Part shown: piece by piece, positions 393 through 2,858 of the stretch
Numbering within the stretch: position 1 is the stretch's first letter
Layout of the letters: the number at the start of each line of letters is the position of its first letter
From: Eremomyces bilateralis CBS 781.70
Lineage: Eukaryota
DNA length: 64,000 bases
Assembly (NCBI GenBank): GCA_010015585.1
Contig: ML975167.1
Reading direction: 5' to 3' (one strand)
The notes under the pieces: model-generated
The model's input: only the letters and a program-made list of their open reading frames with translations
Databases searched by the model: none
What the model was told of the DNA's origin: nothing
Position numbers and translations under genes: made by a program

Positions 393-698
393 GCTTTCTT
401 CAAACCCCTCCCCGCCCACCTCCAATACTAGGCCATCTCTCTTTAGAATCAACCCCTGTAGGTTTATTGATCAGGGTATTCGTAATCATTGGGAGGAAAC
501 GCGTAAATAGCTGAATCGCTCAAAAACAACATCTTCGCAACGGATGGTCCTGCGCGTACAGTGGGCGATAATAGTGAGTGACATTTCGGCAGGGACAAGA
601 ACCAATGAGAAGACGCCACGTATTCAGGGGCGCATCAAATTAATTGCAGCGATGGATGGGCAGGAGACACGAAGACTATCTCCCCATATCCCTCGTTG

Positions 699-886
699 TG
701 TTACGGCACGGTAGCTGGATGCACACAACATACACGTAGCCAAAGATATTCTAGATTAAGCTAAAGAAGAGAACAAGAAGGGGAAGCTCTCTTGTTTACA
801 TCGGAGAGGTTGGACTCTGATTCACCCTTGGCCTAATCAGGCTTAGGCTCTCAGCCTTAGCCAACCAAGGGTTTCAACCCATAACA
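699..886. mobile_element. Solo LTR (188 bp)
   Basis: Begins TGTTACGG and ends CCCATAACA (TG...CA, imperfect terminal inverted repeat). Flanked by a 5-bp direct repeat CGTTG at 694-698 and 887-891. Confidence 0.85.
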
Positions 887-954
887 CGTTGACTAAGTAT
901 GTATGGTACCAAGTCCAGCCAATGGCAGGCGAGCCGAGTAGTACTACGGTGAGA

Positions 955-1044
955 GAGTTCCCACGTGGTCACCCACCGTAGTACTATTCCATCTCTAACC
1001 TGCTTGAGTACGGCAGAGCGGACGGGATGCCCTATTCAGGTTGA
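955..1044 (-). pseudogene. 5S rRNA gene fragment (5S nt ~14-105) of an interrupted copy
   Basis: Matches the intact copy from 1640 onward except one substitution and a 2-nt deletion; lacks the last 14 nt of 5S. Confidence 0.92.
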
Positions 1045-1505
1045 CGGGGCTCACTCCGCTCCGGATATACTTCGGATAGTTAGGAGGTACGTACAGGAAC
1101 TTGCACTTGGCTGTCGGTCTCCTTTCCATCTGCCGTCTGCATTTCAGTGGATGGGAATGCCTACTATTCCTCTTCGCCATCTTCCTGCCTTCGATCCATT
1201 CCTTATAGCCTATAGTACTGCGATATCATGCGGTCTTGCTACGTATTTCTCGTTTCCCCCGTATAGAATCAATCTTATAGTTATGAGATTCTTGAAGACG
1301 AAACTAAGTAGTCAAGGGTATGAAGCGTCGAAAGCATGCAACATTATCATCCATCCTTGATTCATTCACCCCTGCAACCCATTCACACCCATTCTCGAGC
1401 CTATCGCTTGCGAGCAAAAGCAGCCGATTTTGTAGGGGCAAAAGCAGTTTTCGTAGGGTCTTTCCCTCAGAAAATGGAGGGATTTGCTCCGTCGTCCTCG
1501 TTTTG
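1045..1505. mobile_element. 461-bp non-coding insertion inside a 5S rRNA gene
   Basis: Lies between two collinear parts of one 5S gene; TTCAGGTTGA is duplicated at 1035-1044 and 1506-1515. Subterminal tandem repeat GCAAAAGCAG...GTAGGG at 1414-1437 and 1438-1458. Confidence 0.75.
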
Positions 1506-1528
1506 TTCAGGTTGATGTGGCCGTATGT
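1506..1528 (-). pseudogene. 5' fragment (nt 1-23) of the interrupted 5S rRNA gene
   Basis: Minus strand ACATACGGCCACATCAACCTGAA is identical to the 5' end of the intact copy; its upstream flank diverges after 4 nt. Confidence 0.88.
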
Positions 1529-1625
1529 ACTAACAATGGAAGCTTTTCACACCATAAACGACCATTGATCCATTTTGCCCACTAAAAACTTGGCACAATG
1601 GCCATAAAAATATAAAAATATAAAA

Positions 1626-1744
1626 ACATACAGCAATAGGAGTTCCCACGTGGTCACCCACCGTAGTACTATTCTATCTCTAACCTGCTTGAGTACGGCA
1701 GAGCGGACGGGATGCCCTATATTCAGGTTGATGTGGCCGTATGT
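1626..1744 (-). rRNA. 5S rRNA, intact (119 nt)
   Basis: ACATACGGCC...CATCCCGTCCGCTCTGCCGTACTCAAGC...TAGTACTACGGTGGGTGACCACGTGGGAACTCC...GCTGTATGT. Helix I (ACAUACGGC/GCUGUAUGU) and helix II (AACCUG/CAGGUU) pair. Followed by T-runs (Pol III terminator). Confidence 0.96.
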
Positions 1745-2385: not shown

Positions 2386-2858
2386 TAGGGCTGGACACGA
2401 ATAAGGAATTTGGCTATTCGTATTCGACTTTTCCTCTTGAACGATTATTCGTATTCGACTAAGTTTTGAGACGTTTTATTCGTATTATTCGCGAATATTC
2501 GTAAATAATGCCAAGACTTATTCGGCAAAAGCCGAGCCAATGAATGAATGCCCAGCAGTCGCGACTTTTGTTTACCCGAACACGATCTGGAGGATTTGAG
2601 CTCTAAGAGATACAAAGCATATCAATAGCGTCGAATTGATCACTCCTGACGATTCAGCAAGCCAAGTGACCCCAGCGCAAAGCTCTCTGTCGACCATCTC
2701 TCCGATGCGAGATACATGGAAATAGCTTCAGAGATAGACGAATAATTACGAATAATTACGAATAATGCGAATATTATTCGTACGAATATTAGTAAGCGGA
2801 AATTCTAAATTTTATTCGTATTCGACTACGAATTGTCGAATATTCGTGTCCAGCCCTA
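2386..2858. mobile_element. hAT-like MITE (473 bp)
   Basis: Perfect 18-bp TIR TAGGGCTGGACACGAATA (2386-2403 and 2841-2858). Many subterminal TATTCG/CGAATA repeats at both ends; no ORF; no TSD. Confidence 0.85.

Follow-up and report, generated by a model that had tools for sequence, protein, structure and literature searches.

A captainless 461-bp insert in a 5S rRNA gene of Eremomyces bilateralis, probably a relic of a 5S-targeting Starship

A 5S rRNA gene of Eremomyces bilateralis CBS 781.70 is split by 461 bp of foreign DNA. We propose that this insert is an internally deleted relic of a 5S-targeting Starship related to the Arwing family (family 9), and we put the probability of this explanation at about 0.62. 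The insert and its 10-bp direct repeat are confirmed as a real feature of the window, by which we mean the whole stretch of 64,000 nucleotides of contig ML975167.1 that we analyzed. Judging by alignments, the insert is two ends of an element family joined to each other, with 85 bp of filler between them. Starships are moved by a recombinase known as the captain (PMC10104507), and by the captain and cargo criteria, the insert is not a Starship.

The split 5S gene

On the minus strand of the window, an intact 5S gene (1744-1625) is followed by a 96-bp spacer, 5S nt 1-23 (1528-1506), the 461 bp of foreign DNA (1505-1045), 5S nt 14-105 (1044-955), and further foreign DNA. The features are:

592-954, minus strand: tail of a second 5S-targeting Starship family (cut at nt 105), which mirrors the 5S gene (arms 936-956 and 969-989); 97% and 95% identical to C46:30264-30435, with six other copies
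955-1044, minus strand: 3' half of the split gene, 5S nt 14-105, from Rfam and alignment; 1035-1044 is the second core repeat and 955-962 is the core of the second family
1045-1279, plus strand: captain-side end of the element ("head"), 235 bp retained, with the element antisense to the 5S gene; 74-87% matches at four places
1055-1061, plus strand: 7-bp mirror of 5S nt 38-44, with its partner at 1016-1022; 7 bp or more is reached in 1,272 of 20,000 shuffles of the C5 head
1280-1364, no strand: filler of 85 bp between tail and head; it matches only itself in the genome and has no match in the related regions compared
1365-1505, minus strand: end of the element far from the captain ("tail"), 141 bp retained; at least 10 other genomic copies (82-88%), and 11 of 11 begin at 5S nt 23
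1414-1458, no strand: subterminal tandem repeat, conserved in other tail copies
1506-1528, minus strand: 5' half of the split gene, 5S nt 1-23, with no mismatches to the intact gene; 1506-1515 is the 10-bp core repeat
1529-1624, minus strand: 96-bp spacer that separates the tandem 5S genes; similar spacers at C5 (88%) and C13 (82%)
1625-1744, minus strand: intact 5S rRNA gene, the tandem neighbor of the split gene (Rfam RF00001, 85.2 bits, model 1-120)

A check of the sequence found the 10-bp core repeat, TTCAGGTTGA, at both edges of the insert (1035-1044 and 1506-1515) with 461 bp in between. Thus, 5S nt 14-23 are present at both edges. Rfam places the 3' piece at 1044-951 on the minus strand (model 14-109). 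Positions 1044-955 are identical to 5S nt 14-105 except for two differences: 2 bp are deleted right behind the repeat, and nt 69 carries a variant that is also found in intact 5S copies. An initial annotation, made from the sequence alone, had described collinear 5S halves around a 461-bp insert with a 10-bp direct repeat, and the sequence and Rfam bear this description out in every point checked.

The initial annotation was also right that the insert has no credible open reading frame and no terminal inverted repeat. The insert is non-coding: across six frames, its longest ATG-led reading frame is 69 amino acids. The best exact inverted match between its two terminal 40-mers is 4 bp.

MITEs are short non-coding derivatives made of two ends, as is the insert. 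But the insert has neither terminal inverted repeats nor the amplification and high copy number of a MITE, and where a MITE has a short target duplication, the insert has a site-specific core repeat. We rejected MITE, solo LTR, and SINE as classifications because the insert has no terminal inverted repeats or tail features and is single-copy among the matches listed. Elsewhere in the window (2386-2858), a 473-bp element with perfect 18-bp terminal inverted repeats, internal repeats, and very high depth in run contigs is MITE-like.

The two ends of the insert and their captain

A genome search with the insert gave at least 15 matches: the insert itself, at least 10 matches to its first 51-141 bases (82-88% identity), and at least 4 to its other end. 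The tail junction motif occurs 11 times in the genome, versus once for a reversed control, so this junction is not due to chance. All 11 occurrences lie behind 5S nt 1-23. The initial annotation had named copies that are always at 5S nt 14-23 as support for its proposal, which is what the tails show, and a lack of 5S-associated homologs as evidence against it, whereas both ends have homologs at 5S. Among the 11 upstream flanks, six are unlike any of the others, though one consists mostly of N, which indicates that the insertions are independent. The remaining five have tandem-5S, spacer, or head-like sequence in common.

Judging by pairwise extents, the other tail copies break off after about 50-330 bp. 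Since the tail reaches ~330 bp in other copies, the 141 bp at 1365-1505 are a truncation. Among the matches listed, the closest relative of this tail has 88% identity. The tandem repeat at 1414-1458, which had been noticed earlier, is a candidate for a recombinase-binding array, and this role is possible. The filler is presumably a scrap of the lost interior of the element.

The relatives of the head are at C5:504.6-504.8k, C1:2386.3-2386.5k, C2:1626.0-1626.2k, and C5:486.9-487.1k, the last of which is a cut copy. Three of them have further inward sequence in common that is missing from the head at 1045-1279. Alignment to the longer relatives shows both ends of the insert to be truncated.

On contig C5, a head block joins 5S at nt 9-14, and this is 9.2 kb beyond a tail and 5S nt 1-23. 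Thus, at the same 5S site, these two ends also enclose a longer stretch. The order (spacer, tail, head, 5S) is the same as at the insert. As would be expected of a relic, both termini of the insert have homologs among the ends of larger elements that occupy this target. A ~350-bp repeat, of which there are at least 11 further copies, interrupts the C5 tail at nt 51.

The C5 head mirrors 5S nt 33-44 exactly over 12 bp, which was reached in 1 of 20,000 shuffles of that head. The 7-bp mirror that is kept at the insert is, alone, near what chance would give. The mirror arms and the tandem repeat are likely candidates for recombinase binding sites.

At C1:2386.2-2386.7k and C2:1625.9-1626.3k, a head-like block runs into an ordinary 5S upstream region, then 5S nt 1-23, and then a tail. 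This arrangement looks like a circle junction or a tandem insertion. The heads at these two loci mirror 5S nt 48-60, not nt 33-44.

Which captain might have moved this element? The initial annotation had suggested looking for the two ends around a large DUF3435-bearing element. C5 apparently provides one, with a DUF3435 gene, apparently a whole captain, 1 kb inside the head. But this is misleading. The 5' end that belongs to the C5 captain itself lies ~480 bp in from the junction and aligns in 9 copies with unrelated flanks. Also, its gene model belongs to family 5 (Prometheus), which has been linked to AT-rich sites (PMC11162782). These observations imply that it belongs to a separate, nested Starship, and we rejected the 9.2-kb C5 element as the parent. 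We found no link between a Prometheus captain and the ends of the insert. The nested captain (C5:501.3-504.35k) has an in-frame duplication of 15 residues, and its 5' end has many orphan copies.

On C1, there is a broken recombinase relic behind the head homolog. It is frameshifted and truncated, and it points inward, antisense to 5S, a few hundred bases from the head. On its own, it hits the DUF3435 profile with E = 0.26. An exhaustive protein search gave 114 matches at E ≤ 0.001, and all of the longer matches that we scanned (19/19) contained DUF3435 above the cut-off. Four relatives were looked up by identifier; two are present in Table S4 of PMC11162782, and both are in family 9 (Arwing). 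The relic is 36-37% identical to its relatives over about 90 amino acids. It is just 27-30% identical to the captains of the second 5S-targeting family (see below), which suggests a separate sub-lineage. Because the relic lies behind the C1 head, points inward, and has DUF3435-bearing relatives, it supports a Starship origin for the insert.

DNA and protein searches found no further copy of the C1 relic in the genome, and no candidate (0/71) passed in a word-indexed homolog search. We found neither an intact captain of this lineage nor a full-length parent element in the genome. A captain on C3 (37%) was rejected as a candidate, as its 1.5 kb of upstream sequence has no likeness to 5S or the head. 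The C1 relic appears to be a better candidate for the captain than the C5 gene, with the link drawn from one locus (C1), where the head ends differently.

A second Starship family at the same gene

The tail of the second family, next to the 3' half of the split gene, has a 21-bp arm that mirrors the neighboring 5S DNA, forming an inverted repeat. Heads of this family meet 5S at nt 98, and their captains are of family 9. In the window, the tail is interrupted at 698-887 by a small MITE-like repeat of about 189 bp, with short inverted ends and an apparent 3-bp duplication. This repeat is missing from the C46 copy of the tail and has dozens of copies in all, at up to 97% identity. The 3' end of a WD40-repeat gene (3-389), which likely encodes NLR-type cargo, faces the second-family tail.

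In the nt 14-23 family, two head junctions are known, and each is followed by the second-family tail. Also, 6 of the 11 nt 14-23 tails are followed by a second-family (nt 98-105) head 8-26 kb on (at C13, two loci on C1, C2, C34, and C46). We rejected a replicated hybrid of one family's tail and the other's head because the interiors of these six loci are not collinear. Double insertion and then deletion explains the pairs of tails and foreign heads, though the rate is high and the frequency is unexplained. Another three of the 11 tails have no assigned partner head; at two of these, the contig ends.

The same short spacer and an extra 5S copy recur behind nt-98 heads, and also between tandem 5S genes, where the outer flanks differ (C1:2371.7k, C9:801.9k, C9:16.8k, C2:788.5k, C20:162.5k, C6:1504.1k, and C46:30.1k). 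This pattern would be consistent with elements bringing a 5S gene of their own as a replacement, so that tandem copies stay behind, in the way that certain bacterial integrative elements rebuild their target.

We noticed other features of the 5S genes in this genome. At C1:1007.2k, downstream of an intact 5S gene, a further 5S start breaks off at about nt 14 into different sequence, which is possibly a third insertion site or family. The 5S genes at C13:226.8k and C1:484.9k, which lie on different contigs, are 76% identical to each other over about 1.1 kb upstream. A second type of 5S, about 80% identical, is found at C5:444.4k and C1:1125.1k. It differs inside the nt 14-23 core, and none of the 11 tails is joined to it. 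It recalls the two 5S variants reported for the host of the Starship Voyager (10.1101/2021.12.13.472469).

Origin of the insert and its place among Starships

We propose that this 5S gene was entered, in antisense orientation, by a Starship from a sub-lineage related to Arwing (family 9). A tyrosine-recombinase crossover within the 10-bp core TCAACCTGAA (nt 14-23) would have left the core at both edges. The captain gene and the cargo would then have been deleted in place, so that 141 bp of the tail, 85 bp of the interior, and 235 bp of the head remain. Later, the second Starship family would have cut the remaining 5S piece at nt 105. The outcome would be a captainless, single-copy relic with both junctions intact, which a captain acting in trans could in principle excise. 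Decayed interiors are usual in this genome, given that the other tails end after about 50-330 bp, and this supports the relic explanation. Against it, tails at nt 14-23 outnumber heads joined at nt 9-14 by 11 to 2.

The insertion looks recent, judging from the two parts of the 5S gene. Allowing for variants seen in intact copies, the split halves have no substitutions in 113 nt, besides the 2-bp deletion. For comparison, the 3' half at C5 has 4 substitutions in 92, and the eleven 5' halves have 9 in 253. In contrast to the clean 5S halves, the ends are ~10% diverged: the tail at 1365-1505 differs from the majority of eight other tails (two short copies were left out) at 14 of 142 positions and is 80-86% identical to each. 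This implies that most of the divergence of the ends predates the insertion, or else that the 5S halves were converted. If the insertion is young, the element has had little opportunity to decay where it stands.

The evidence of recent insertion is our strongest result against slow decay, and it fits another possibility that we consider unlikely: a true non-autonomous mini-Starship. An ends-only form would have arisen elsewhere, been excised as a small circle by a captain acting in trans, and entered this gene already at its length of 461 bp. In favor of this, neither the junctions nor the 10-bp core have any flaw, and the element-side bases that resemble nt 8-13 differ while those from nt 14 onward do not. 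Starships do move as circles, which form at direct repeats (10.64898/2026.09.21.753150), and in an engineered mini-element, wild-type protein rescued a frameshifted captain (PMC10104507). However, gene conversion could also give clean 5S halves. The genome search gave one full-length match among the at least 15 matches listed, so we see no second 461-bp copy and not the several near-identical short copies at different sites that would mark a non-autonomous mobile family. The nearest tail among these matches is just 88% identical, and the genome search for an intact captain of the lineage was negative. No empty-site or circle joint for 1045-1505 is listed in four runs; all four are in the form of contigs, from which rare variants are lost, so the negative does not show that such joints are absent. 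Neither junction motif has an exact match in metagenome contigs (0 and 0). Of the initial proposal, a derivative of a site-specific 5S-integrating element, the family dispersed at nt 14-23, the same ends around 9.2 kb on C5, and the DUF3435 relic behind the C1 head are in favor; a mobile non-autonomous family is not supported, given the single 461-bp form, tail relatives at no more than 88%, and no listed empty site or circle.

Could the split gene instead be a chimera? A large deletion might have joined a tail in one 5S gene to a head in a different 5S gene. Joins of a tail to a foreign head are common here (6/11, with non-collinear interiors), tandem 5S genes occur here, and rearrangements between Starships have been reported. 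But for this fusion, a single chromosome would have to carry two copies that face the same way, we found few heads at nt 9-14 (2), and C5 has the same order of spacer, tail, head, and 5S. We regard it as rather improbable.

It is more doubtful still that 1045-1279 is not a Starship head but captured 5S upstream flank, or the end of another 5S-targeting element, with the C1 relic as a chance neighbor. The motif GAAGTATATCCGGA in the head agrees at 13 of 14 bases with a box that occurs naturally upstream of 5S at C2:770.5k, the C1 and C2 heads run into ordinary 5S upstream region and 5S nt 1-23, and the nearby captain on C5 did turn out to be a chance neighbor. But the position and the inward, antisense orientation of the C1 relic are like those of second-family captains, and none of the 21 other 5S upstream flanks that we compared is similar to the head.

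An assembly artefact or a local duplication of 5S nt 1-23 is very improbable: the assembly is from short reads, there are tandem 5S copies nearby, and no listed run contig spans the whole stretch, but identical junctions are found at 10 other loci and the run contigs hold most of the sampled words and cover the insert. Specifically, contigs from two runs of one sample contain 0.89 and 0.59 of the sampled words over 900-1760, with depth across the insert. As that sample may be the source of the assembly, these contigs argue against a misjoin, but not independently. The listed joints in read contigs reproduce the arrangements at C1, C2, and C5. Run X10, which has the same species label, covers 6 of 30 bins and none of the unique flanks. 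The locus is missing from run X3 as well, and runs X4-X9 have small shares; we draw no conclusion from any of these runs.

Returning to the relic of an Arwing-related Starship, much of what it implies has precedents. The Arwing, Enterprise, and Voyager families target 5S, which is hit at five or more sites with repeats of 6-16 bp (PMC11162782), and there are 5S hotspots with several Starships (10.1101/2024.06.28.601215). The insert resembles these elements in its site inside 5S, the length of its repeat, its fixed orientation, and the family-9-related captain relic behind a homologous end, but it is 461 bp without captain or cargo instead of tens of kb. Voyager of Macrophomina phaseolina also inserts about 20 bp from the 5S start (10.1101/2021.12.13.472469). 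In contrast to the insert, Voyager is 74-124 kb, active, and has terminal inverted repeats, and it belongs to family 10, while the two classifiable relatives of the C1 relic are in family 9.

Reduced Starships have been described as well. Captainless "Derelict" regions and other degraded Starships (10.1101/2021.12.13.472469; PMC11162782) have, like the insert, lost the captain and left a remnant in place, but they keep cargo, whereas the insert lost its cargo and keeps both termini and the core repeat. Smaller haplotypes that bear captains (PMC12506042) and large indels that mark Arwing "Cloud" elements (10.64898/2026.01.28.702382) are also on record. The engineered mini-Hephaestus and starmids (PMC10104507; 10.64898/2026.09.21.753150) are similarly reduced towards two ends, and their circle mechanism would apply here. 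But they are artificial, they keep 3,820 and 1,902 bp of ends and the captain gene, and their target is TTAC, not 5S.

Thus, 5S targeting and captainless relics have already been published. In contrast, we did not find a natural sub-kilobase, ends-only Starship in the literature searched, which included the accessible parts of PMC13004909 and 10.1101/2025.01.08.631984; subscription papers and preprint supplements were mostly outside its scope. The core repeat is not among the repeat rows that we compared from the starfish supplement, and nt 14-23 may still be in Table S13 or Fig 5C of PMC11162782.

As a relic, the insert is a modest finding, since 5S targeting and Starship decay were already known. 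The locus is also an example of a single 5S gene that two Starship lineages have cut, each at a site of its own. If the insert were instead a true mini-Starship, then less than 0.5 kb of ends would be enough for a 5S-targeting captain to excise and reinsert an element in trans. This would put a ceiling on how much cis sequence site-specific integration requires, and it would imply a MITE-like tier of Starships that captain-anchored annotation has missed. Pipelines anchored on the recombinase gene cannot see captainless forms like this insert. With both junctions kept in 461 bp, far below the 5.7 kb of ends in the engineered mini-element, the insert is a ready substrate for questions about minimal DNA and captainless mobility.
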